In this document: positions 1,884 through 58,128 of the stretch, in pieces
How the letters are laid out: each line of letters starts with the position of its first letter
Numbering within the stretch: the stretch's first letter is position 1
NCBI GenBank assembly: GCA_965221905.1
Contig: OZ244922.1
Span: forward strand, 64,001-128,000
Direction: 5' to 3'
Length of the DNA: 64,000 nt
DNA from: Chloroflexota bacterium
GTDB lineage: Bacteria; Chloroflexota; UBA11872; VXOZ01
Position numbers and translations under genes: made by a program
Notes under the pieces: generated by a model
Seen by the model: the letters and a program-made list of their open reading frames with translations, nothing else
Database searches by the model: none
What the model was told of the DNA's origin: nothing

Positions 1884-2019
1884 GCTGTTCTCGTTGGTAC
1901 TACCAGTAAACTGTTTCGACGAGACACAATGCTTGCTGCGAGATGTCAAGCGCACCGCACGGCCCCGCCAAGCGCCCACCCAGAGAGTTTCGCAAATCCA
2001 AGACTATAAGCAAAGAACT

Positions 2020-2059
2020 CCCTCTCCCCGGTCTATACAAGAGGGCGGGGTGAGGGTGA
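2020..2059. repeat. Family E repeat, degenerate solo copy
   Basis: ccctctcc...gagggcggggtgagggtga matches the repeats flanking the DUF559 gene. Confidence 0.6.
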
Positions 2060-5222: not shown

Positions 5223-5542
5223 GCGGGGGACGAGCCCTCGCGCTACGGTTCACTGTAGTGACATTTCAAGACCAGTCCGTCACTCCCGCGCACGCGGGAA
5301 TCCATCTTCACACCTGCCACGCTGTCGTCGCTTGCGGTGGTCATAATGCAATGCGACCCCAACAATTGCCGAGGAAGAGCAAGGGCAACTATCTCCGGTA
5401 GCGCAGGTTTGCAACCTGCGTCCACCCGGTGGAAGACGATCCCATTCACAGTTCAACTGCGATAGCGACTACAAACTTGGGAATCGCCCTCACCCCCGTA
5501 TCAAGTACGGGGCAGGCTCTAGCCCTCTCCTCCGGGAGAGGG
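5223..5542. repeat. Mixed repeat cluster: B (5223-5246), D (5278-5304), H (5398-5420), E with 24-bp insert (5484-5542)
   Basis: Four different hairpin families in one intergenic gap. Confidence 0.8.
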
Positions 5543-5626
5543 AATAACAATACCAGTCGGTGGTGGATAGGAGTAGTGCGTCACATCCACTTTGCGAAAG
5601 CCCCAAAGGACCGGCCCCGCGCAATG

Positions 5627-6115
5627 TCACTCCGCTTTGCCGTTCCCCAGAACCTTCACCATCATGCCACGTTCCTCATAGTACCGAGCGCGCAGAAAGA
5701 ACGCCAGAGCAGCGTGGTTACCCTCGGCAACGTTGGTCGCAAGCCTCATCATGCCCTGTTCCCGTGTCCATGCCTCTGCTTCCTGCAGCAGCCGCATAGC
5801 GATGCCCCGGCGGCGGTAGGGCGCGGACACTGCCAACGCGCGGACGTGGGCGTACGGTGGCTGGGTAGGACTCCCGGTACGCACCGAGAGCGCGATCATA
5901 CCGATAACGCACCCCTCTCGGTGCTCCACTTCGCCGTCCGCCACTGCCACGAGCCGCAGTGCATCCTTGACCGACGCGCCAACGGCATCTTTGGACGACA
6001 TGCGGGAGCGCAATTCACGCACAATCGGGAGCGATGCCTCCACGATCGTGCGCTCAAGATCGCGGATGAGCGGCGCATCTTCTGCGCGTGCCGGGCGAAT
6101 CGTCACTGCCGTCAT
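5627..6115 (-). CDS. GNAT family N-acetyltransferase
   Basis: LAVSAPYRRRGIA acetyl-CoA motif, N..AL.FF; N-terminal IRPA. Confidence 0.85.
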   Translation of the reverse strand: MTAVTIRPARAEDAPLIRDLERTIVEASLPIVRELRSRMSSKDAVGASVKDALRLVAVADGEVEHREGCVIGMIALSVRTGSPTQPPYAHVRALAVSAPYRRRGIAMRLLQEAEAWTREQGMMRLATNVAEGNHAALAFFLRARYYEERGMMVKVLGNGKAE

Positions 6116-6373
6116 GCGTGTGCGGGTCTCTTCCTGCGCGCTAGCAACGCGTTCTTCGCCACGCGAAGCTCCGCTATGCCATTGCCCGTACCGAGATTCT
6201 TCTTATCCACTCCAATAGTATATGAACGTCAGCGCCGCATTCAGGCGCTGCCCTTTCCTTGACGCCCTGCACGCGCAAGTCCATCATGATGGTAGGCTTC
6301 TAGCTAAGAGGCACAAGAGAATCTCGACCCTCAATCTCGCGGAAGAATCCGCAGCGGAAATACCCCCTACCCT

Positions 6374-17388: not shown

Positions 17389-18267
17389 ATGAGTCGACGA
17401 GCGTTGCGCAAGCAGCTTATCGAGGCGATCGAGCTGGGGGACATGACCCGCGTCGCCGAGATTGCGGCAACTGACTCTACGATTGTCAACGCGGCGAACT
17501 CGCACGGTCACGTGCCTCTTGGCGCTGCGATTGGCACCGGCTGCCTCGATCGCGTCAAGCTGCTGGTTGCCCTGGGCGCGGATCCGCATTACAGCCATCA
17601 TGGAAGGACCCTGCTGGATGCGGCGGCCTATGCCGGCCATGTGGGGATATTTCGCTATCTCGTTTCGTTCGACATGCAACCGACCGTACACCATGCCGCA
17701 GCCATCGGCGACATTCCCCTGCTGGAGCGGATGCTAGCGGTAAGTCCGGCCTTGCGCGGACCCACGGCGGCGGGAGGCCGCTGGCGCATTACGCCGCTGC
17801 ACGCGGCGGTAATTGCGGGCAACGGCAAATCCGTCGCCTTCCTGCTTGGGCAAGACGTGCCCGTGGACGCACAGAACCACAACGGCCACACCGCGCTGGC
17901 ACTGATCGCAGAGTATCCCGCAATGGAAGTCCGCGCACCTATTGCCAATCTGCTGCTGTCCCACGGTGCGAACGTCAATGCGGCCGCGGGGCATCATGGC
18001 GGTACCGTGCTCCACCGGGCCGTAATACACGGCGACATCGCATTGGCGGGATTGCTGCTGGAACATAGTGCTGATCCGGACCGTCAGGATTGGTCGGGCA
18101 AGACGCCCCTCCATCATGCGGTGACAAAGAATCGGAAGCTCGTCGAGTTACTGCTGGCGCATGCGCCAAATCTTGCAGCCACATCACGCGACGGAGAAAC
18201 CCCCTTGGAGTATGCCCGGCGCTTGAAGAAACGGACAATCGTACGCCTGCTTGAAGGAACGCCGTAA
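17389..18267 (+). CDS. ankyrin repeat protein
   Basis: Repeated TPLH/TAL/TVLH..A...G...V..LL..GAD/NVN motifs. Confidence 0.92.
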   Translation: MSRRALRKQLIEAIELGDMTRVAEIAATDSTIVNAANSHGHVPLGAAIGTGCLDRVKLLVALGADPHYSHHGRTLLDAAAYAGHVGIFRYLVSFDMQPTVHHAAAIGDIPLLERMLAVSPALRGPTAAGGRWRITPLHAAVIAGNGKSVAFLLGQDVPVDAQNHNGHTALALIAEYPAMEVRAPIANLLLSHGANVNAAAGHHGGTVLHRAVIHGDIALAGLLLEHSADPDRQDWSGKTPLHHAVTKNRKLVELLLAHAPNLAATSRDGETPLEYARRLKKRTIVRLLEGTP

Positions 18268-22846: not shown

Positions 22847-22987
22847 GTAGGGGCACGACATGTCGTGCCCCTACACGTGTGTGGGGCTAGAAGAAGAGAT
22901 TTGACCCTCACCCTAACCCTCTCCCGCCGGGAGAGGAGACTTTCTCGCCTCGGCAAGGGTTTCGCAAAGGTCTCCAGCGGGAGAGGG
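22847..22987. repeat. Family A palindrome (22847-22874), family E copy (22905-22936) and partial E copy (22971-22987)
   Basis: ccctcaccctaaccctctcccgccgggagagg; between convergent genes. Confidence 0.85.
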
Positions 22988-27269: not shown

Positions 27270-27306
27270 CCCTCTCCATTGAGGGAGAGGGTCGGGGTGA
27301 GGGTGA
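27270..27306. repeat. Family E solo copy
   Basis: ccctctccattgagggagagggtcggggtgagggtga. Confidence 0.8.
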
Positions 27307-41568: not shown

Positions 41569-42090
41569 ATGGCAGACGTAGAATTACAGGTCAAGACGCG
41601 AGGTGGCGCGACTATACACAAGGCCGCAGTGCTGGCAGCGTATCCTGATGGAAGATACCTTACAGGCCAGACTGACGCCGACGGCAAGTGCCGACTAAAC
41701 CTGTACCGCGTCGATCAGGAAATGAAGATACTTATAGCCGCAGACGGCCACCTTCCTTTCCATGAAGCCCTCGTCCCGGGGAATTCAGAAACCGTCTCCT
41801 TGGAGTTAGAGCCGTCCAAGGATGACAGAAGGGCGCTCCTATTCACCCGGAGCACAGGATACATCCCAGGGATTACGGGACGCCTCAATCCACACAAAGA
41901 TGGCTATGTTTACGGTGACAATATTGCCATAAACGGGCAACTTGCAACGCCTGCCGCACATTTCGAGATAGAGGAGTACCTCCATCTGATCGACGTGTAC
42001 GGCGTCGAGACAACAATCCGATTCTTAGTGGTTGAAGGACAGTTTTCGCTTATTGAGTACACTGAGCCCAAGGCTTATGCAGGGGAATGA
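41569..42090 (+). CDS. hypothetical protein (probable all-beta; N-terminal carboxypeptidase-regulatory-like strands)
   Basis: AGGAG RBS, 173 aa, TDADG motif, GYIPG..GRLNP; stop overlaps the next start. Confidence 0.65.
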   Translation: MADVELQVKTRGGATIHKAAVLAAYPDGRYLTGQTDADGKCRLNLYRVDQEMKILIAADGHLPFHEALVPGNSETVSLELEPSKDDRRALLFTRSTGYIPGITGRLNPHKDGYVYGDNIAINGQLATPAAHFEIEEYLHLIDVYGVETTIRFLVVEGQFSLIEYTEPKAYAGE

Positions 42091-42461
42091 ATATGGCCAC
42101 GGCGGAGCAGCATCGAGAGATTAGCATTCAATTCTTGGATCATGCGGAGGACGAATTACGTAAGGGTGATTTCCTTCAGGCCTCCGAGAAAGCAGGGGGA
42201 GCGGTTTCCCATTATGTGAACTCTGTTGCCCGCCAGCGGCCAGTTCCGCTGGGGTCGCACAAGCGACTGATCGAAAATGCCAACAAGCTGATCGAGAAGG
42301 GCCCTGCTAATGCGAGCCATAAGCGGAGGTTGCTACTATCAATCGAGGTGCTTCATGCCAACTTCTATCATGCGCATTTGGACGAAGTTTTGGTTGGGGA
42401 GGGTATTGAGGACGCCAAGGAACTTATCAAAACCTTTGATGACCTTAACTCAGACATATAG
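42087..42461 (+). CDS. PaREP1-like (HEPN-related) protein
   Basis: A..EL..GD.LQASEKA.GA, SH..L, LHANFY. Confidence 0.75.
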   Translation: MNMATAEQHREISIQFLDHAEDELRKGDFLQASEKAGGAVSHYVNSVARQRPVPLGSHKRLIENANKLIEKGPANASHKRRLLLSIEVLHANFYHAHLDEVLVGEGIEDAKELIKTFDDLNSDI

Positions 42462-43140: not shown

Positions 43141-43775
43141 GATGATGGACATGGTGTTACTGTCGGCACTGTTGATTTTGCCGCTCCTAAGTTCAGAATC
43201 CGCCGAATCTGTCTTGGCTGGTCAGTGTTGCCGGCTTGGCCCCAGTTGTATTTCCCCGCCAAGAATCGCGTGATTTCGGGAGGATAGCCGCTTTTCGGCA
43301 TCTGTTACCCGCCGTGCTCGCAGCTGTAGACGGCTACCTGGACGTTGCTCCATCGGACCGGTCGCTCAGGCGGGGATTCTAACATTGTTTCTCCAAGTTT
43401 AGTGCAGTACCGCCCGGCACCGAGCGCTCCTCGCCGTGAAAGTGGTTGCAACAGCGGGCGCCGACCTCCCATGACCGCCTCGCTCTGTCCGAAGTACCCT
43501 CAGTCCGCCGTTATCTTGAAGCCGTTGCCAGCCATACTGCCTCCACCGCGCTGAACTTGAACCCGTCTTACTTTCCGCCTTGTGGGCCTCGTGCGCTTGG
43601 CAGAGCGCGCTGAAGCCGGGGGTGCTGGCGAGTGCGCCGCGTAGCATACACCGGTCGGTTTGCTCTTCTGTCCCAGCCAGACGAGCGCGAGCTTGCTGGC
43701 GTACGGCCGGATTCTCTATGAGGTCGATGGCTTGGCGCAGGCGACGCTCGCGGTTGCTTGCCTTCAAGGCGTTTT

Positions 43776-43817
43776 TCACCCCCATCCCGCGACCTTCCCC
43801 GTCAAGGGGGGAAGGGG
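43776..43817. repeat. Family E variant
   Basis: tcacccccatcccgcgaccttccccgtcaaggggggaagggg; same architecture with a varied stem. Confidence 0.55.
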
Positions 43818-43990
43818 TATCGCAGAGGTCTCCCACGGGAAGCAAGCGTCCAGGCATGGGGAACCGGTGAGCGTACCCTGGCGCCGGAGCGATACAGCCG
43901 CGCGGCGTGAGGTCCGCTCCAGGAGCAAGGAGAAGACGAGCGCATCTGTCGATAGGCAGGTGAATTGGTGGAGAACCGGTGTCCACATTC

Positions 43991-44019
43991 TTGACATAGC
44001 GCGTAGAGGGAATTAAACT
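43991..44019 (+). promoter_or_regulatory. sigma70-type promoter for the downstream solute-binding protein
   Basis: TTGACA-17 nt-TAAACT. Confidence 0.6.
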
Positions 44020-44038
44020 TCTAACATTGACGAGCAAG

Positions 44039-51537: not shown

Positions 51538-52851
51538 ATGGCGAACACATTAATGGCCGGCGCGGCAAAGGTGGCGATCACGCCGCCGCTGGGGAGCGCC
51601 TTTCAATCGAGCCGAGCGGATCTGCGTGTTGAGAGCGTCCTGCACGATCTCTACGCTACCGCCGTGGTACTCAGCGACGGCGAGCGGAAGGTGGCGATTG
51701 TTGGGCTTGACGTGCTCGGCTTGGATGCGCCGTTGGTCAATGCCGTGCGCGAGCGCGTGCAGCAGCAGACGTCCATTCCCGGGGCCAACGTGCTGATCAA
51801 TGCCGCGCACAACCACTTCGGCCCGGCCATTCTGCAGGCCCTTCCCGATGAAATCGACGAGGCGTACTGGCAGGGGTTGGTGCAGTCGCTTGCCGATGCC
51901 GTGACCCGCGCCGCTACGAGCCTGGAGCCGGTCGCGCTCCGCGTGGGCGCTGCCGAAGGGAACTTTGCCATTAACCGGCGAAGGCTGGAAAACGGCGAAG
52001 CCCAACTAGCGCCGAACTATGGCGGCATCGTAGACCAGCGCATCCGCGCATTGCGTTTCGAGCGGCTGGATGGTTCAATGGTCGCCGTGCTCTTCTCAGC
52101 AGCATTCCACCCGACCGGCTTTGCCTACCGGGCGCCGGTGGTAAACGGCGACTACGTGGCCGCTGCCCGGCAGGAAGTGGAGCGGCAGTTTGCGGACCAG
52201 GGAGCGCCCGTCGTCGGCTTCCTGCAGGGGTGTGCGGGCAATATGCGCGTGCGCGTCATCGCGCCGGGTGGCACCCGCTTTCATCCCTGCACGGTGGAAG
52301 AGATCGACACCCACGGGCGCGGCGTTGGCGCGCTCGCCGCCCGTGCCGCCCGGGAAGCAACCATGGTGGTTGGGTATCCCATTGGCGCGGCGGACGAGAT
52401 GGTGTCGCTGCCGTTGCAGGAGCCGCCCGATGAGGCAGAGCTTGAAAGCATGCGGCAAGGGGCCGCCGGCGACCACTTTTCGCGCCTCTGGACAGACTCA
52501 ATGCTTGCGCCCCTCCGGCGCGGCGAAGCACTGCCGACGAGCGTCGACTTTCCTGTGCAGGTATTCCGCATCGGCGGCCTGTGGATGGTGGGTATGGGCG
52601 CTGAGGTGTTTTTGGAAATCGGTCAACAGATCGAGGCGGCGCTCATGGCCGATCACGTGGGACAGGCAGCTTGGACGCTCGGCTACACGAACGCTACCCT
52701 CGGCTACGTCTGCACCGAGCAGTCATATGAAGATGGCGGCTACGAACCCACGCGTTCCCACAGGTTCTACCACCTGCCGGCGGCCTACCAGCCCCAGACC
52801 GAACACCTGCTCGTGGCCGAAGCCCTCCGCATTGCGCGCACGCTCGCATAG
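51538..52851 (+). CDS. neutral/alkaline ceramidase-like N-terminal domain protein
   Basis: AG.AKV.ITPP, HDLYA.A.VL, NA.HNH.GP, FHPT, FLQG.AGN, GY.N..GY, GGYE. Confidence 0.8.
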   Translation: MANTLMAGAAKVAITPPLGSAFQSSRADLRVESVLHDLYATAVVLSDGERKVAIVGLDVLGLDAPLVNAVRERVQQQTSIPGANVLINAAHNHFGPAILQALPDEIDEAYWQGLVQSLADAVTRAATSLEPVALRVGAAEGNFAINRRRLENGEAQLAPNYGGIVDQRIRALRFERLDGSMVAVLFSAAFHPTGFAYRAPVVNGDYVAAARQEVERQFADQGAPVVGFLQGCAGNMRVRVIAPGGTRFHPCTVEEIDTHGRGVGALAARAAREATMVVGYPIGAADEMVSLPLQEPPDEAELESMRQGAAGDHFSRLWTDSMLAPLRRGEALPTSVDFPVQVFRIGGLWMVGMGAEVFLEIGQQIEAALMADHVGQAAWTLGYTNATLGYVCTEQSYEDGGYEPTRSHRFYHLPAAYQPQTEHLLVAEALRIARTLA

Positions 52852-52896
52852 TACAGACCAAGAGACGTATACTCCACTGAGCAAACTCAATTAAAA

Positions 52897-53313
52897 CCCT
52901 CTCCTGGGGGAGAGGGTTTGGGTGAGGGCGAACAAAATGGCACCACAAGGCGCTGCAAGGGCCCGACATCTCCGGCAGAGTTCAACAGAAGCCGAGAAGA
53001 CCCTTTGGCGTCACTTGCGCAGCCGTCAGTTGGCGGGTTGCAAATTCCGCAGACAAGCACCTCTTGGCAGGTACATCGTTGACTTCTTGTGCTATGAGCG
53101 AAACCTGGTGATCGAAGTCGATGGTGGTCAGCACCAGCTACGTTCAGAAGAAGATTCAATACGCACGAACTGGCTGGAGGCCTGCGGCTTTCGCGTGGCT
53201 CGCTTCTGGAACAATCAGGTGTTAGAAGAGACTGAAGCAGTCTTGGATGCCATCCTACGGCAGTTGCAGGGCGAAGAGTCGCCCTCACCCTAGCCCTCTC
53301 CCCCAGGAGAGGG
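52897..53313 (+). mobile_element. 417-bp unit: DUF559 endonuclease gene between two inverted family E repeats
   Basis: Left 52897-52931 ccctctcctgggggagagggtttgggtgagggcga; right 53279-53313 reverse-complements to ccctctcctgggggagagggctagggtgagggcga (33/35). Confidence 0.7.
52937..53293 (+). CDS. DUF559 / Vsr-like endonuclease domain protein
   Basis: AR.LR..STEAE..LW..LR, KFRRQ.P.G.YIVDF.C, LVIEVDGGQH, D..R...L...GF.V.RFWN; alternative GTG 52922 lies inside the left repeat. Confidence 0.92.
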   Translation: MAPQGAARARHLRQSSTEAEKTLWRHLRSRQLAGCKFRRQAPLGRYIVDFLCYERNLVIEVDGGQHQLRSEEDSIRTNWLEACGFRVARFWNNQVLEETEAVLDAILRQLQGEESPSP

Positions 53314-53345
53314 AACTAGAGGGGCTCCGCGAGACGGATAGTGCC

Positions 53346-53442
53346 AGCGCAAGCGGGAATCCATCTACGAGAGTAGTCAAAGGGTATGGTAAAAGTGGCA
53401 AACATTGCCGCGCTCCTGGACTCCGGCGGAGGCCGGAGCGAC
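53346..53442. repeat. Degenerate inverted pair of family D repeats
   Basis: agcgcaagcgggaatcca ... tggactccggcggaggccggagcgac; a further D copy at 53894-53920. Confidence 0.65.
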
Positions 53443-53551
53443 TGACCCGGAACCAGGAAGCATTATAGCAGTTGCTAGGGCGCGGCGCACATTTGAAGGG
53501 CAAGCGAGGCGGCGTTACACTCTCGGGCAGCCCTAGAGGATTTGTGCCCCC

Positions 53552-53851
53552 TTAGCCTGCCTCTTGGAGCGGCATGGGGGAGGCGCCGCTGAAGTGGACG
53601 CCAATGTCGCTGGCCATGGTCTCGTGGTACTGCCATTCGGGGACCAGACAGCGGTAAGGCCGCCGGAGCAGCACACGCGGCTCGCCCTGCCACTGCGTGA
53701 CCGTCATGGAGCGTTGCAGGTTAACCTTCTGGTACTCCTCGGCATCTTCCAAAGACTTGTGCAGCGAATAGCCGTCTGGATAGTTCCGTCCCTCGGTGGC
53801 GCGCTTGCCCCACTCCACGCACCACAACGCCTGTTCATCCCGCATCGGCAT
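53552..53851 (-). CDS. hypothetical protein
   Basis: AGGAGA upstream of ATG 53851; the ORF-track ATG 53899 is supplied by a family D repeat; motif W.VEW...PDGYSLH. Confidence 0.55.
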   Translation of the reverse strand: MPMRDEQALWCVEWGKRATEGRNYPDGYSLHKSLEDAEEYQKVNLQRSMTVTQWQGEPRVLLRRPYRCLVPEWQYHETMASDIGVHFSGASPMPLQEAG

Positions 53852-54065
53852 GTGGAAGTAGTCTCCTAACTGCGAATAATCAGCCGGGTAGTCCGTCATT
53901 CCCGCTTGCGCGGGAATCCATCTTCATACGAGCACTGTCTCACGCATCACGCAGAGATTATACCGTCAAGAGGGAGCGTTTTCAACGTTGACAGGAGATG
54001 GATCGCTTCTCCTCTGAAACAAGCGCGCGGCGAACGCTTGCTGAATGCGCCCTTCATACTCCAGC

Positions 54066-55760
54066 CTATTTCCAAAACACAGCTGGTGACACCCTATCTC
54101 CAAGCCATGGTAAGACCGAATCTCTAAACCAATCTAGTACGTGCTCTGGCACCCCGGTTACGTCCACAGCAGTACCGTCACCCGTAACCGTTACCCACTC
54201 CCAAGCGCCCTTCGTTGTCTCCGTTGTTACCTGCACGGCAATTTGGGTAGCACTGCCTGCGCCCTGCCAGGCTCCCGCAGAGAAATCACCTATACCTTCT
54301 AAGGTGCCGTCAGGTAAGCCCTCTACTCCTTGCCAGGTTTGCACTGCGATACCTCGCGTACCTAGTATTGCGCTCCTGGGGGCACCTCCTAGTCCTTGCC
54401 AAGCACCGTCCGAGTAATTCCCAATTCCATGCAAGGCATCCTCAGAGAAACCCCCAATGCCCTGCCAGGCCCTTTCGGAGGCATCGCCTGCGCTCTTCAA
54501 GGCTTTTTCAGAAGCATATTCAACAGCTTTCTGAAAGCTCTCAAATGAACTGGCAGCTTGTGCCCAGGCCTGCTTTGGTATTTCCTTTGAGTTGTTCCAG
54601 GCTGTCATTACCGGTTCAAAACCGATGCGTTCTACCCACTCACTACTAAGACTGTAGAATTCACGTCCGTAAAGCAAGAATGTCATCACCACCATTACCG
54701 GAGCTAAGGAAGTCAACAGTGATCCCAAAGCCGGCACTACCATAACCAAACCAAGCACGATGCCAAGGACACCCACAGCAAACAATGAATCTTTGCCAAC
54801 TCTCGCAGCCACACTCGAAAAGAGTTCAGATAGACTTATCTCGCCATCGTTATAACGTAGTCCTTCCTCCAAAGCTACAACTGCCACTTCGACCACCGCA
54901 ATGGCTGCAGCCCCAGGCAGGATAGGCCGAGCCGCCAGTCTTAATGCCTGATTGAATGCCGGCGAGCTCAACTCTCTACGAATCGAAGTGATCTGATTAG
55001 CCGCCAACTTCCTTTCGCCGCGGCTTAAATTTTGAAGTCGAATCTGCTCAGCTTCTTCAATTAACGCCCGCTGCGCTTGCTCAAACTCAATTTCCGTCAT
55101 GGGCCTGTCGCCACGTAAGAGGTTCTTTATTCTATCTTCGAAGATGCCATTGCTGGCGAGGTCGCTCCCTCCATGGCTTTTTGGGACTATGTGACTCCAA
55201 TGTTTATCGGAGCGAAACTTGCTCAATGCTTCCTCTTCGCCTAACACAATTCCCAAAGGAATGGTCTTGTACACCTTATACGCTTCCTGGAGGGTCCGAT
55301 ATGGGACACCACCCGCGGTATGGTAATACTGCCGGTGACTTGGAGGCAGTTTCTCCCAGACTTGCCTGTATATCCACTCTTCCACAATCTCATTCGGTCC
55401 AGCATGGAGTATCGGTTCAGGAAGCCGCCCCCATATGCTCTGGGTTCCGACCGTAGGGTTCCTACCGAAATCTGCAAAGAGGGAAGGAAGGTTGGGAATG
55501 CGGGACAAGCTTGCGGCAAAGGTGCTAGCGATCCAGAGGGACAAAGTACCAGTGCGAGCATATTGCTCTACGTCGGAGTCCTCGGTTCTTTCGATCAAGT
55601 CAGCAATCGTATATGAATCGGGACTTTCACCAGCGGGGTCGGTGATTTCAGCGTGAGCAGGCCGTTTAAGGGCAAAGTGTAGACCGCAAGCTGCGAGGCT
55701 TGCGCCTGAGAACTGCAAGAAGGCTCTCCGGTCAAGAACTATTCGCTGTCTCTTTCCCAC
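54066..55760 (-). CDS. Tat-signal protein with HNH-like motif, hydrophobic segments and C-terminal 11-aa repeats
   Basis: DRRAFL..., AHA cleavage site; HWSHIVPKSHGGSDLASN...N; AWQG repeats; visibly lower GC. Confidence 0.75.
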   Translation of the reverse strand: MGKRQRIVLDRRAFLQFSGASLAACGLHFALKRPAHAEITDPAGESPDSYTIADLIERTEDSDVEQYARTGTLSLWIASTFAASLSRIPNLPSLFADFGRNPTVGTQSIWGRLPEPILHAGPNEIVEEWIYRQVWEKLPPSHRQYYHTAGGVPYRTLQEAYKVYKTIPLGIVLGEEEALSKFRSDKHWSHIVPKSHGGSDLASNGIFEDRIKNLLRGDRPMTEIEFEQAQRALIEEAEQIRLQNLSRGERKLAANQITSIRRELSSPAFNQALRLAARPILPGAAAIAVVEVAVVALEEGLRYNDGEISLSELFSSVAARVGKDSLFAVGVLGIVLGLVMVVPALGSLLTSLAPVMVVMTFLLYGREFYSLSSEWVERIGFEPVMTAWNNSKEIPKQAWAQAASSFESFQKAVEYASEKALKSAGDASERAWQGIGGFSEDALHGIGNYSDGAWQGLGGAPRSAILGTRGIAVQTWQGVEGLPDGTLEGIGDFSAGAWQGAGSATQIAVQVTTETTKGAWEWVTVTGDGTAVDVTGVPEHVLDWFRDSVLPWLGDRVSPAVFWK

Positions 55761-57582: not shown

Positions 57583-58049
57583 CCATTCATCCTTCGGCCC
57601 TTCGACATGCTCAGGACAGGCACGCTCAGGATGAACGGTACGAACATCTCCAACGGAAAGTCGCCGCTTGTGGCTGGCAAAGTGAGGTATAAACGGCAAT
57701 GAGGCAAGTGTTTCTGACTCACTCCCTCTATGGTGGGGGGGAATTAGTTACAGGAGTCTTGCACTAAAGAGCGGGGGACAAGCCCCCGCTCTACGGTTTC
57801 GGAGTCGCATTTAGGAGGATGGGGGGGGGGGGGGTGATCGTTGGGATGAAGACCGAATAATCCTGTACGTACGCCAAGACGGCAAGTGATGGGGCCGTCG
57901 GTTCCTTAACGACCGTAGGGGCACGGCATGCCGTGCCCCTACGGTCTCACGCTTATGCGCCCTCACCCTAACCCTCTCCCACGGGGAGAGGGAACAGTCG
58001 AGGAAGTTATCGCCCTCGCCTTAGCCCCCTTTACGCAGCGGGAGAGGGG
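57583..58049. repeat. Large mixed cluster: F (57583-57638), B (57770-57794), G14 tract (57821-57834), A variant (57915-57942), E (57958-57992, 58010-58049)
   Basis: Each element matches copies elsewhere in the window. Confidence 0.85.
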
Positions 58050-58128
58050 ACTTCAGGCTCAGTGAAAGACTTCTGTCTTGTCCAACGTGGTAGTGCACGT
58101 GTTTCTCACTTGCAGGGCGTTGTGCGGG

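Follow-up and report, generated by a model that had tools for sequence, protein, structure and literature searches.

A DUF559 nuclease gene enclosed by inverted repeats of the BoxC/PIT/TMECO type

The nuclease gene and its flanks

In the window, by which we mean the whole 64-kb stretch of Chloroflexota DNA that was analysed, a small nuclease gene has a short structured repeat on either side, in inverted orientation, the whole element (gene plus both repeat units) measuring about 0.42 kb. The gene, at 52937..53293 on the forward strand, is assigned to the DUF559 nucleases (Vsr-like, PD-(D/E)XK / EDxHD-type) from its open reading frame, its Pfam match and its predicted fold. The reading frame opens with a GTG at 52922 and runs to 53293 (123 amino acids), and a start at the conserved ATG at 52937 gives a protein of 118 amino acids. 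The inverted arms, 52897-52931 and 53279-53313, are 35 nt long and 94% complementary (33/35), stand 347 nt apart and form the sole inverted pair detected in 52700-53500, and on this point the initial annotation, which had an intact 118-aa DUF559 gene between inverted 35-nt repeats, was right.

Each arm is a triplex-motif (TM) unit, in which a hairpin (pyrimidine arm, loop and purine arm) is joined through a 3-nt linker to a mirror-image tail. In the left unit (52897..52931, forward strand), the parts are the pyrimidine arm CCCTCTCC (52897-52904), the loop TGGG, the purine arm GGAGAGGG (52909-52916), the linker TTT (52917-52919) and the third-strand tail GGGTGAGGG (52920-52928), and the right unit (53279..53313, reverse strand) comprises a hairpin at 53294-53313, a linker at 53291-53293 and a tail at 53282-53290, so that both third-strand tails are oriented inwards, to the DUF559 gene. 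The two copies have the loop TGGG in common when each is read in its own orientation, as had been noted. The gene also runs into its repeats: the right unit encodes the final codons (SPSP) and the TAG stop, with the TAG at 53291-53293 being the very linker that separates tail from hairpin, and the left tail holds the in-frame GTG at 52922 together with a GAGG Shine-Dalgarno-like stretch 8 nt upstream of the ATG. The earlier placing of stop codon and GTG within the two repeats is thus borne out.

The neighbours of the gene are a ceramidase-like gene and ORFs without an assigned family. Among the 51 ORFs of the window, Pfam found no transposase family, Y1_Tnp included, and there was no DNA cytosine methyltransferase; the 64 kb hold no second DUF559 copy. 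No target-site duplication was seen, the bases beyond the two arms being unrelated, which agrees with the annotation on both transposase and duplication. A scan of 52600-53600 returned no sigma-70-like promoter, although such a scan is uninformative for Chloroflexota. A search of the whole window with Rfam gave 0 matches at the gathering threshold, so the repeat is not accounted for by any known RNA family, and the PADLOC defence library gave marginal matches only (E=1e-3), to methyl-directed restriction enzymes and Hhe.

The protein matches Pfam DUF559 (PF04480) at E=5.6e-44, scoring 148.9 bits where the cut-off is 20.6 and covering profile positions 4-109 of 109, and DUF559 and MTES_1575 are the only Pfam families at E<=0.01, with no match to Vsr (PF03852) at that level. 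The family of DUF559 nucleases is very large, numbering 25,367 cluster representatives at E<=1e-3, and includes E. coli YcjD and the solved structure 3HRL. The YcjD-family model NF007294 (PRK09767) matches at E=2.4e-33, with 114.7 bits against an equivalog cut-off of 218, which makes the window protein a relative and rules it out as an equivalog; the sequence of 3HRL matches at E=6e-30. When an AF2 model of the protein (pLDDT 87) was submitted to Foldseek, it matched 3HRL with a TM of 0.90, 3R3P (the catalytic domain of I-Bth0305I) with 0.79 (E=4e-4), and 1VSR with E=4.5e-3. The model thus points to a Vsr-like fold, with the homodimeric homing endonuclease I-Bth0305I as the probable nearest characterised structural relative. 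Superfamily and predicted fold are shared with Vsr, E. coli YcjD, NGO0050 (PDB 3HRL) and Caulobacter VsrA, but unlike Vsr itself the window protein has neither the Vsr Pfam match nor a neighbouring cytosine methyltransferase. E20, W24, D49, F50, E60, D62, Q65, H66, D73, R89 and W91 are invariant in 81/81 proteins, and with them the putative active site E-x-D...H...D. We take D49, E60, D62, H66 and D73 to be the catalytic residues, an assumption that draws on Taylor 2011 (PMC3239194). In the literature searched, we found no published activity of DUF559 proteins on TM DNA, and no published substrate for YcjD or NGO0050.

The repeat and its predicted third strand

Known since the 1990s, the BoxC/PIT/TMECO repeats fold into a stable triplex in vitro, are found in their thousands in bacterial genomes and mark unstable loci. 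By its sequence, the window repeat ('family E' of the initial annotation) is this already described intrastrand-triplex motif, and the tail GGGTGAGGG is the third strand of a predicted purine-motif triplex; the annotated structure, a hairpin plus a tail, was correct, but the known identity of the motif and the third-strand nature of the tail had been overlooked. The TMECO consensus is CCCTCNCCC N3-6 GGGNGAGGG N3 GGGNGAGGG (Holder 2015, PMC4666352), to which 57960-57992 is an exact fit, and 22905-37, 27270-303 and the two gene-flanking copies fit with an 8-bp stem. Like the published elements, the window copies are dispersed, intergenic, single or in palindromic pairs, G/C-rich and of the same three-block architecture. 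The published motif, however, was reported from Proteobacteria and Cyanobacteria, and the parts of Holder 2015 (PMC4666352) drawn on here associate no gene with it, whereas the window motif lies in Chloroflexota, has several variants of the arm and encloses a nuclease gene, its gene-flanking copies having 8-bp and not 9-bp stems.

Among 237 hairpins, a fully triad-compatible tail was found on one side in 167 and on the other in 0; when the tails were permuted among the hairpins, 200 permutations gave a mean of 48 perfect tails and a maximum of 62. Of the 174 asymmetric arms, 115 are perfect under a mirror model and 33 under a direct one, arm and tail co-vary over 33 distinct asymmetric types, and the TM units obey the purine-motif triad rule (G.GC, A.AT, T.AT); under Watson-Crick folding the tail stays unpaired. 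Where the arms are asymmetric, the tail cannot form Watson-Crick pairs with the pyrimidine arm, since asymmetric tails are the mirror and not the complement. A G-quadruplex built from purine arm, linker and tail, which have four G-runs in the AGA and A types, is less likely than a triplex, because the 33 asymmetric types obey a mirror rule that a quadruplex does not need and because a triplex was seen by CD and NMR (Holder 2015, PMC4666352). According to the parts of that study used here, which also cites earlier work on the motif by Bachellier/Hofnung and Hoyne/Maher, the CD and NMR evidence concerns the E. coli sequence only, DMS footprinting in vivo saw no stable triplex, and TM motifs stall DNA polymerase in vitro and are tied to local genome instability. 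In the same parts, its authors 'never found ... transposases or integrases' near TMECOs, name no function, origin or mobility gene and leave the function open.

Within the window, CCCTCTCC-N3-12-GGAGAGGG occurs 5 times against 0 in each of 100 shuffles, and GGGTGAGGG is present 8 times, where shuffling gives 0.70 on average and never more than 3. Seven solo copies had been annotated, of which four are intact: one at 22905..22937 (reverse strand, one mismatch at the stem end) and one at 27270..27303 (forward), both between convergent genes; an 'AA' variant at 43776..43815 (reverse; CCTTCCCC ... GGGGAAGG, a 5-nt linker, GGATGGGG), whose tail follows the mirror rule relative to its own arm; and 57960..57992 (reverse; CCCTCTCCC cgt GGGAGAGGG tta GGGTGAGGG), the exact published TMECO pattern. 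The others are less complete, namely a degenerate unit at 58010..58056 (reverse), in the same orientation as the 57960-57992 unit and 17 nt from it; a decayed unit at 2017..2056 (forward), in which pyrimidine arm and tail are recognisable and the purine arm is degenerate; and a composite at 5487..5542 (reverse), in which a second small hairpin, CCCCGTA...TACGGGG, separates the linker from the tail, a type also found at two loci in our comparison set (L012, L076). On a crude gene map all solo copies fall between Pfam-supported ORFs, so that their description as intergenic holds to this extent, but two of them overlap ORFs without a Pfam match (43402-44037 and the start of 5429-6259).

The same layout around related nucleases

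We compared 80 homologous genome loci out of 117 confirmed, from 7 phyla, and inspected 12 of 44 matches in a plasmid collection. Inverted flanks scoring >=14 surround the gene at 56/80 loci and at 0/443 position-shifted controls (control maximum 13), and 75/80 loci have inverted flanks >=14 or, on one side or both, a strict unit. Near the gene ends there are 142 units in 30.6 kb (4.65/kb), with 116 tails pointing toward the gene and 26 away, and at more than 300 nt from the gene ends 30 units in 176.5 kb (0.17/kb), with 14 toward and 16 away. With a 27-fold local enrichment and no control above the threshold, the layout goes well beyond what the density of an intergenic repeat would give, so that the refuting condition set in the annotation, flanks no more frequent than random intergenic density would give, does not hold. 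The stop codon lies within the linker at 15/80 loci and in the window. In an independent sample of 150 representatives clustered at 50% identity, a TM-derived 6-mer peptide occurs in the N- or C-terminal extension of 109/150 proteins, against 1/150 in the core.

The same architecture is found in Chloroflexota, Pseudomonadota, Thermodesulfobacteriota, Nitrospirota, Verrucomicrobiota and Bdellovibrionota, with further loci in Deinococcota and Cyanobacteriota; inverted TM flanks score, for example, 43 in Sinorhizobium, 47 and 53 in two Deinococcus, 32 in Pseudanabaena and 23 in Sphingomonas, and in N. gonorrhoeae TM units adjoin the homologue of the solved protein 3HRL. Two further gene-sized TM pairs (L027, 628 nt; L021, 1216 nt) have no other Pfam family between them. 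An enzyme gene between inverted dispersed repeats is a specific, recurrent and cross-phylum property of this DUF559 clade. The link between DUF559 and TM repeats appears to be unreported so far. For CDSs that have inverted repeats of the predicted inversion type, Milman 2023 lists 'DUF559 domain-containing protein' among the enriched annotations, at an odds ratio of 14.3.

Gene-less tail-to-tail doublets at two loci (L074, L022) keep both element ends and lack the gene, and because these alignable doublets retain gene ends they are internal-deletion derivatives of the gene-bearing element and not virgin targets. They stand in tandem beside the parent element, so local duplication could account for them without transposition. 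At a further locus (L004), the left unit is present in three tandem copies together with 119 nt of the gene. Paralogues lying far apart in one genome (L020/L032, L025/L033) share about 70% nucleotide identity and can be aligned only over the stretch that runs from one hairpin to the other, to within 12 nt. DUF559 genes are frequently pseudogenes, with several diverged paralogues per genome, and even the closest orthologue of the window gene (L001) carries an in-frame stop. The window element itself stands at the same syntenic site and in the same orientation in four related Chloroflexota genomes, which means that it has not moved recently; the element of this lineage is old and vertically inherited. 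With all four syntenic genomes occupied, no pair of occupied and empty alleles was found. Purine arm, linker and tail are invariant in five orthologous loci, where the coding DNA is 74-82% identical.

A comparison of protein and repeat phylogenies, which had been put forward as a check, did not bring out a matching of enzyme to repeat. On a weakly resolved protein tree (116 columns, 40/77 inner branches unresolved) at least 13 changes of TM type (AGA / A / AA) are needed, as are at least 12 of phylum, and one and the same element may have left and right units that differ in type; a sequence-specific enzyme-repeat match is therefore not evident.

The other proposed correlation, of repeat number with DUF559 presence, can be followed in E. 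coli, where ycjD is present in 3378/5426 genomes. Among 59 sampled chromosomes, the 37 with ycjD have 8-22 TM places (median 13) and the 22 without have 1-17 (median 2), a difference with a Mann-Whitney p=9e-9 that is uncorrected for phylogeny. The expected trend is thus present, but ycjD-negative lineages are not emptied of the repeat, since O157:H7 rows without the gene keep about 10 places and one ycjD-negative genome has 17, which speaks against a strict dependence; ycjD-positive rows with a divergent allele have 8-10. The correlation is real and phylogroup-confounded, and because the counts follow phylogroups it is suggestive only.

What the nuclease may do with the repeats

Since the same layout surrounds relatives in many phyla, the nuclease may be the missing enzyme partner of the TM repeats. 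Our main reading, to which we give a probability of about one half, is that nuclease and repeats form one functional system, in which a nuclease akin to Vsr and the homing endonucleases would act on the repeats. It would recognise TM DNA, either as the folded hairpin plus third strand on transiently single-stranded DNA or as a palindromic doublet, and would cut at or beside it; the cut would prime repair or recombination, with the 35-50-nt repeats serving as homology, and in this way TM units, and now and then the gene between them, would be copied, deleted, duplicated or made uniform. The gene-bearing unit would then be the autonomous 'master' copy, and solo units and doublets its non-autonomous or decayed derivatives. 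A lone PD-(D/E)XK nuclease cannot join strands, so spread would need host recombination. A bolder version holds that the nucleases of this clade are dedicated intrastrand-triplex-repeat enzymes and that gene and repeats make up a new minimal selfish element of about 0.4 kb, driven by nuclease-triggered recombination with no transposase chemistry, and this we regard as possible but distinctly doubtful.

Known systems offer several partial models. RAYT with its REPs and REPINs, reportedly set out by Nunvar in 2010, Bertels and Rainey in 2011 and Ton-Hoang in 2012, is one, and the proposed system would work like it, with a PD-(D/E)XK nuclease and a triplex-forming repeat: in both, one enzyme gene lies between inverted short structured repeats that are also dispersed as singlets and inverted doublets, the doublets are related to the gene flanks and there is no target-site duplication. 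The differences are that the window enzyme is a Vsr-like PD-(D/E)XK nuclease and not an HUH/Y1 transposase, that the TM repeat is a hairpin with a predicted triplex-forming third strand, and that TM-flanked DUF559 has several diverged paralogues and pseudogenes per genome. Alternatively, the element could be likened to a free-standing homing endonuclease lodged mid-way in its own palindromic target. EDxHD homing endonucleases such as I-Bth0305I share the Vsr-like fold (3R3P being the second-best structural match), the conserved E, D, H and D, and a selfish-gene logic in which a nuclease gene sits amid (pseudo)palindromic DNA; I-Bth0305I, however, is described in the parts of Taylor 2011 (PMC3239194) used here as multidomain, placed in a group I intron and directed at a unique recA target, whereas the window protein is a bare 118-aa domain, free-standing and intergenic between multicopy repeats. 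MITEs and their parent insertion sequences resemble the element in having terminal inverted repeats and gene-less internal-deletion derivatives that keep both parental ends, but the window element lacks a transposase and a target-site duplication, and its ends are themselves a free-standing dispersed repeat.

The nuclease might instead be a host-side, structure-specific repair enzyme (an 'anti-triplex' flap or fork nuclease) that processes folded TMs, which would spread by other means and obstruct replication, the gene having been captured between TM units by rearrangements at TMs. We think this unlikely. In its favour are that TM motifs block polymerase in vitro and are linked to instability (Holder 2015, PMC4666352, in the parts used), that Caulobacter VsrA, which has a DUF559 domain, is SOS-induced and acts on chromosomal DNA (PMC12907096, in part), that the window copy is vertically inherited at its syntenic site, and that more TM copies in ycjD-positive E. 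coli would be expected if the nuclease makes them tolerable. It leaves unexplained the precise and oriented embedding, with 116/142 tails inward and stops within linkers, as well as the diverged repeat-bounded paralogues per genome, the frequent pseudogenes and the patchy presence of ycjD in E. coli. Somewhat harder to credit is a passenger gene, that is, an ordinary Vsr-like mismatch nickase of the very-short-patch type, in no special relation to the repeats and carried as cargo between TM units that some other machinery moves or recombines. DUF559 is indeed the sister family of Vsr, VsrA is functionally tied to a cytosine methyltransferase in the parts of the Caulobacter report used here (PMC12907096), and the tree gave no sign of enzyme-repeat sequence matching; but no other Pfam family was found in the two other gene-sized TM pairs, a spread over at least 7 phyla and 109/150 distant representatives is hard to sustain for arbitrary cargo, and the window has neither a cytosine methyltransferase among its 51 ORFs nor a PF03852 match at E<=0.01.

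Decidedly improbable, in our opinion, is an expression device, in which the repeats would serve the gene itself, by supplying a ribosome-binding stretch and a stop, by forming a terminator or a 5'-3' panhandle in the mRNA, or by acting as a switch at which RecA inverts the gene with respect to promoters lying outside. The GAGG of the tail and the stop in the linker would suit it, but units also stand alone or as gene-less doublets at many other intergenic sites, the gene has one orientation in the four syntenic genomes, and PIT elements showed neither promoter nor terminator activity in an earlier study cited by Holder 2015 (PMC4666352, in the parts used). Coincidence, in the sense of an abundant intergenic repeat (with about 8 other copies in the window) falling by chance on both sides of a short gene, is refuted by the control comparison and the local enrichment.

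If nuclease and repeats do form one system, two long-standing orphans would explain each other. It would be a second, mechanistically different enzyme-repeat system beside RAYT/REP and would provide a natural triplex-reading protein. On the bolder version, it would give us the first protein family with an intramolecular purine-motif DNA triplex (or palindromic doublet) as its natural substrate, and would account for the origin, the dispersal and the 'genomic instability' of BoxC/PIT/TMECO from E. coli to Chloroflexota, Deinococcus and cyanobacteria. The oriented, cross-phylum embedding turns both questions into a bench test of YcjD against TMECO DNA in E. coli K-12, a strain in which a degenerate hairpin lies over the ycjD stop and an intact TMECO stands 167 nt from the gene, where the chance expectation of a copy that near is about 0.004, taking 23 copies per genome (Holder 2015, PMC4666352, in the parts used).

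The gene and its flanking repeats

In the window, the DUF559 ORF runs from a GTG at 52922 or an ATG at 52937 to 53293 (full-profile Pfam match, E=5.6e-44), and it is indeed enclosed, as the initial annotation had it, by inverted arms at 52897-52931 and 53279-53313, 35 nt long and 33/35 complementary, which are the sole inverted repeat found in the region. Each flanking repeat reads pyrimidine arm CCCTCTCC, a 4-nt loop, purine arm GGAGAGGG, a 3-nt linker and a block, GGGTGAGGG, that faces the gene at both ends. Gene and repeats also overlap as described there, since the right-unit linker is the plus-strand TAG stop and the left block contains the in-frame GTG; a GAGG stretch lies 8 nt before the ATG at 52937, which is kept in 5/5 orthologous loci. 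The solo copies reported elsewhere in the window are real too, a mixture of intact and decayed units: none of 100 shuffles produced the hairpin pattern, of which the window has 5 instances, and GGGTGAGGG, present 8 times in the window, averaged 0.7 per shuffle. Just outside the hairpin, at 53314-53330 and upstream of each left unit in L003 (a syntenic relative), lies AGAGG(G)CTCC(G) or its reverse complement, which recurs beside several units of this lineage and is a candidate for the element's true outer boundary.

On one side the neighbour is a ceramidase-like gene (51538-52851, Pfam Ceramidase_alk match), and on the other a minus-strand 115-aa ORF (53552-53899), with a minus-strand 564-aa ORF (54066-55760) also downstream of the element; neither of these two has a Pfam family, and their DNA is 74-84% conserved in syntenic relatives. 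The setting is ordinary chromosome (GyrA, FtsK, RNase J, CTP synthase, isopropylmalate dehydrogenase and others), the window holds no second DUF559 copy, and none of its 51 ORFs is a transposase, in keeping with the initial annotation. An archaeal PaREP1/PaREP8-family ORF (E=6.7e-9) and an ankyrin-repeat protein, at 42087-42458 and 17389-18264, are both somewhat unusual on a bacterial chromosome.

In the units of the window and of 80 related loci, the block after the linker mirrors the purine arm instead of complementing it, and sometimes has T opposite an arm A. The third strand of a purine-motif triple helix lies antiparallel to the purine strand and forms G.GC, A.AT and T.AT triads, so that a block mirroring the arm, with an occasional T for A, obeys the rule for such a helix. 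Among 237 perfect all-pyrimidine/all-purine hairpins (stem at least 7), 167 have a block with 100% valid triads on one side and 0/237 on the other, and permuting tails among hairpins gave 48 on average and at most 62 over 200 permutations. For non-mirror-symmetric arms (n=174), the mirror model fits perfectly in 115 cases and the direct-repeat model in 33. The rule is obeyed by 33 distinct arm/tail types, for example GGGGGAAGG/GGATGGGGG and AGGGGAGGAA/AAGGTGGGGA, and the linker is 3 nt in 146/167 units.

Such a repeat has been described before, as BoxC, later PIT and then TMECO (Holder et al. 2015, PMC4666352), with the consensus CCCTCNCCC N3-6 GGGNGAGGG N3 GGGNGAGGG. Holder et al. report that the isolated TMECO strand forms a stable triplex by CD and NMR, no stable triplex was found in vivo, copies number 3610 in 262 proteobacterial genomes (23 in K-12), cyanobacteria are rich in related G/C-rich motifs, TMECO loci are unusually variable among E. 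coli strains, and transposase or integrase remnants were 'never' found with them. The window copy at 57960-57992 fits the consensus exactly, and E. coli genomes have a median of 19 matching places for a 43-nt window copy used as query; thus the 'family E' of the initial annotation stands as a dispersed hairpin repeat, though an already known one, and it is a member of the BoxC/PIT/TMECO family, whose range now extends to Chloroflexota. We call its copies TM (triplex motif) units.

These units vary. The copy at 5487-5542 is composite, with a second small hairpin (CCCCGTA...TACGGGG, preceded by GAGCCTG) between linker and third-strand tail; the insert recurs in two other Chloroflexota genomes (L012, ~1905-1947; L076, ~202-245) and so defines a conserved sub-family rather than a one-off. 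At 43776-43815 an AA-type variant with a 5-nt linker coexists with the gene-flanking AGA type in one genome, and within single elements of L022, L047, L056 and L074 the left and right units differ in type, each keeping its own arm/tail mirror match.

Association of DUF559 genes with TM units

Whether such flanks accompany DUF559 genes elsewhere was a question raised by the initial annotation, and the answer is clearly yes. One scan of a species-representative genome collection confirmed 117 relatives, of which the best 80 were analysed (33 Chloroflexota, 35 Pseudomonadota and 12 from five other phyla or unassigned). Scoring the flanks of the gene against each other by their best ungapped inverted match gave at least 14 at 56/80 loci, at least 18 at 48 and at least 25 at 26, against 0/443 at 14 or more, and never above 13, in controls shifted to six positions. 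A strict detector placed inward-facing units on both sides at 40 loci, on the left only at 12, on the right only at 19 and on neither at 9; with the inverted-repeat criterion added, the association is seen at 75/80 loci and is absent at L042, L047, L057, L066 and L070. Unit density is 4.65/kb within 150 nt of gene ends and 0.17/kb beyond 300 nt, a 27-fold difference, the latter being the window's own background level. Tails are biased in orientation near the gene only (116 toward it and 26 away; 14 and 16 far from it). At 15/80 loci the linker serves as the stop codon, just as it does in the window; at another 31 the ORF ends within the unit or past it, so the repeat there codes for the protein tail.

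The query held five repeat-coded residues per end, possibly favouring repeat-bearing loci slightly in this ranking, and two further samples are independent of it. Among the best 150 of 25,367 cluster representatives from a 1.84-billion-protein library, 109 carry a TM-translatable 6-mer in an N- or C-terminal extension and 1 in the core, typical C-termini being ...SPSPxPSPxxGEG...; reversed-sequence controls gave 12 and 28, counts inflated because TM-coded peptides are nearly palindromic. The other sample was thirteen named loci, K-12 and 12 of 44 plasmid-collection matches. Inverted TM flanks are present in Sinorhizobium, two Deinococcus, Pseudanabaena (a G-only variant) and Sphingomonas; single or arrayed units adjoin the gene in Azospirillum, Picosynechococcus, Klebsiella, N. 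gonorrhoeae (where the gene is a homologue of the solved protein 3HRL) and E. coli; Synechocystis has a degenerate unit and Methylobacterium a doubtful one, and the truncated P. aeruginosa copy has none. We consider the association of DUF559 genes with TM units established.

Two details deserve mention. On the Deinococcus plasmids (L087, L088; ~900-950 and 1310-1350) the inverted flanks of 47-53 nt have their third-strand tails outward, the reverse of the inward arrangement in the window's clade, and in N. gonorrhoeae (L084, 1487-2069) three identical GA-rich units, CTCTCTCCC tgt GGGAGAGAG cta GAGAGAGGG, spaced at 281 nt, lie just downstream of the 3HRL homologue.

Inheritance and derivatives of the element

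The window, L001, L003 and L004/L002 have both flanking genes in common at 74-84% nucleotide identity, so in this lineage the element is orthologous and has been passed on vertically; across these loci the purine arm, linker and tail do not vary, while the coding DNA falls to 74-82% identity. Distant paralogues on the same chromosome (L020/L032, L025/L033) align at ~70% from hairpin to hairpin only, +/-12 nt. Gene-less tail-to-tail doublets occur in flanks in 10 cases, with 46-114 nt between hairpins: that of L074 aligns with the neighbouring gene-bearing element over 80 left and 85 right columns, the gene being deleted, and the two in L022 retain 107 columns on the left together with the right unit. 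In L004 the left unit plus 119 nt of the gene is present in three tandem copies, and L001 and L057 have internal stops. This is how a selfish element and its defective offshoots behave; the alignable derivatives adjoin their parent, however, so gene-less forms may also arise through local duplication.

Tandem left-unit arrays with a period of ~144 or 122 nt, some including the gene's first ~119 nt and some lacking it (L004, 2086-2507; L003, 981-1400; L001, 1329-1372), are found on the upstream or the downstream side of the full element and vary in copy number among the four syntenic genomes. The closest orthologue, at the same syntenic site (L001, 1501-1857; 77% identity), has its in-frame stop in the conserved core after ...TWL and is either a pseudogene or an assembly error.

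What the enzyme might do

By sequence, the nearest solved structure is 3HRL (E=6e-30), and the AF2 model (pLDDT 87) matches 3HRL best (TM-score 0.90), then the I-Bth0305I catalytic domain (3R3P, 0.79) and then Vsr; the window protein scores below the YcjD equivalog cut-off. Invariant in 81/81 proteins are E20, W24, D49, F50, E60, D62, Q65, H66, D73, R89 and W91, including the E/D/H/D set that Taylor 2011 (PMC3239194) gives as the catalytic motif common to Vsr and EDxHD, and there I-Bth0305I is a homodimer cutting a pseudopalindromic site to leave 2-nt 5' overhangs. In some predicted proteins (P0001, 377 aa with 3 matched stretches; P0002, 1214 aa with 2; P0003, P0043, P0149) two or three DUF559 domains follow one another or are joined to a long N-terminal part; such proteins may be genuine fusions or the product of reading through tandem elements.

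The mechanism we infer, at a probability of about 0.5, is a nuclease-repeat system in which the DUF559 enzyme would act as a nuclease on TM DNA and host recombination would perform the copying step. The protein tree is too weak for a co-evolution test, and the repeat type changes often along it, so recognition of structure rather than sequence fits better. A distinctly less likely reading makes DUF559 a host repair nuclease for TM structures; the DUF559-containing VsrA of Caulobacter (PMC12907096) is SOS-induced and damages DNA in the absence of a solitary cytosine methylase. Slightly less likely again, the enzyme might be a passenger mismatch nickase with a Vsr-like fold; against this, no methyltransferase linked to the gene is found among the window ORFs. 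That the inverted repeats are an expression or inversion device seems improbable: the element keeps one orientation across the syntenic loci, and PMC4666352 records no promoter or terminator activity. Chance can hardly be entertained beside the shifted controls. In the literature open to us, we found nothing linking DUF559 to BoxC/PIT/TMECO repeats (subscription-only papers and supplements might hold more), the nearest hint being a table row in Milman 2023 with DUF559 CDSs enriched among predicted inversion targets; repeat family and protein family are each known, and their coupling would be a new form of the enzyme-plus-repeat theme.

For the nuclease-repeat reading, the initial annotation looked to repeat copy number as a correlate of DUF559 presence, and in E. 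coli this is borne out in part. A 559-nt K-12 stretch spanning ycjD and its TMECO was the query; ycjD is present in 3378/5426 complete genomes, and TM places were counted in 60 rows taken evenly down the ranking, less one plasmid row. The ycjD+ chromosomes (n=37) have 8-22 places, median 13, and the ycjD- chromosomes (n=22) 1-17, median 2 (CFT073 2, one ST131 strain 1), with a Mann-Whitney p=9e-9 for counts that track phylogroups and so reflect few independent events. Counter to a simple dependence, ycjD- O157:H7-type rows have 10 places and one ycjD- genome 17, and ycjD+ rows with the divergent allele 8-10. PMC12817139 places ycjD in phylogroups A, B1 and C plus two other sequence types, with the eefRABCD operon in its place elsewhere. 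In K-12 the ycjD end, ...SPSP*, overlies a decayed hairpin; beyond it come a second copy of ~50 nt from the gene's own 3' end and, 167 nt downstream of the gene, an intact TMECO. The start of ycjD (L081, NC_000913.3, 4300-4800) lies inside a perfect 16-bp palindrome, CACCTCATTCTGACAA...TTGTCAGAATGAGGTG.
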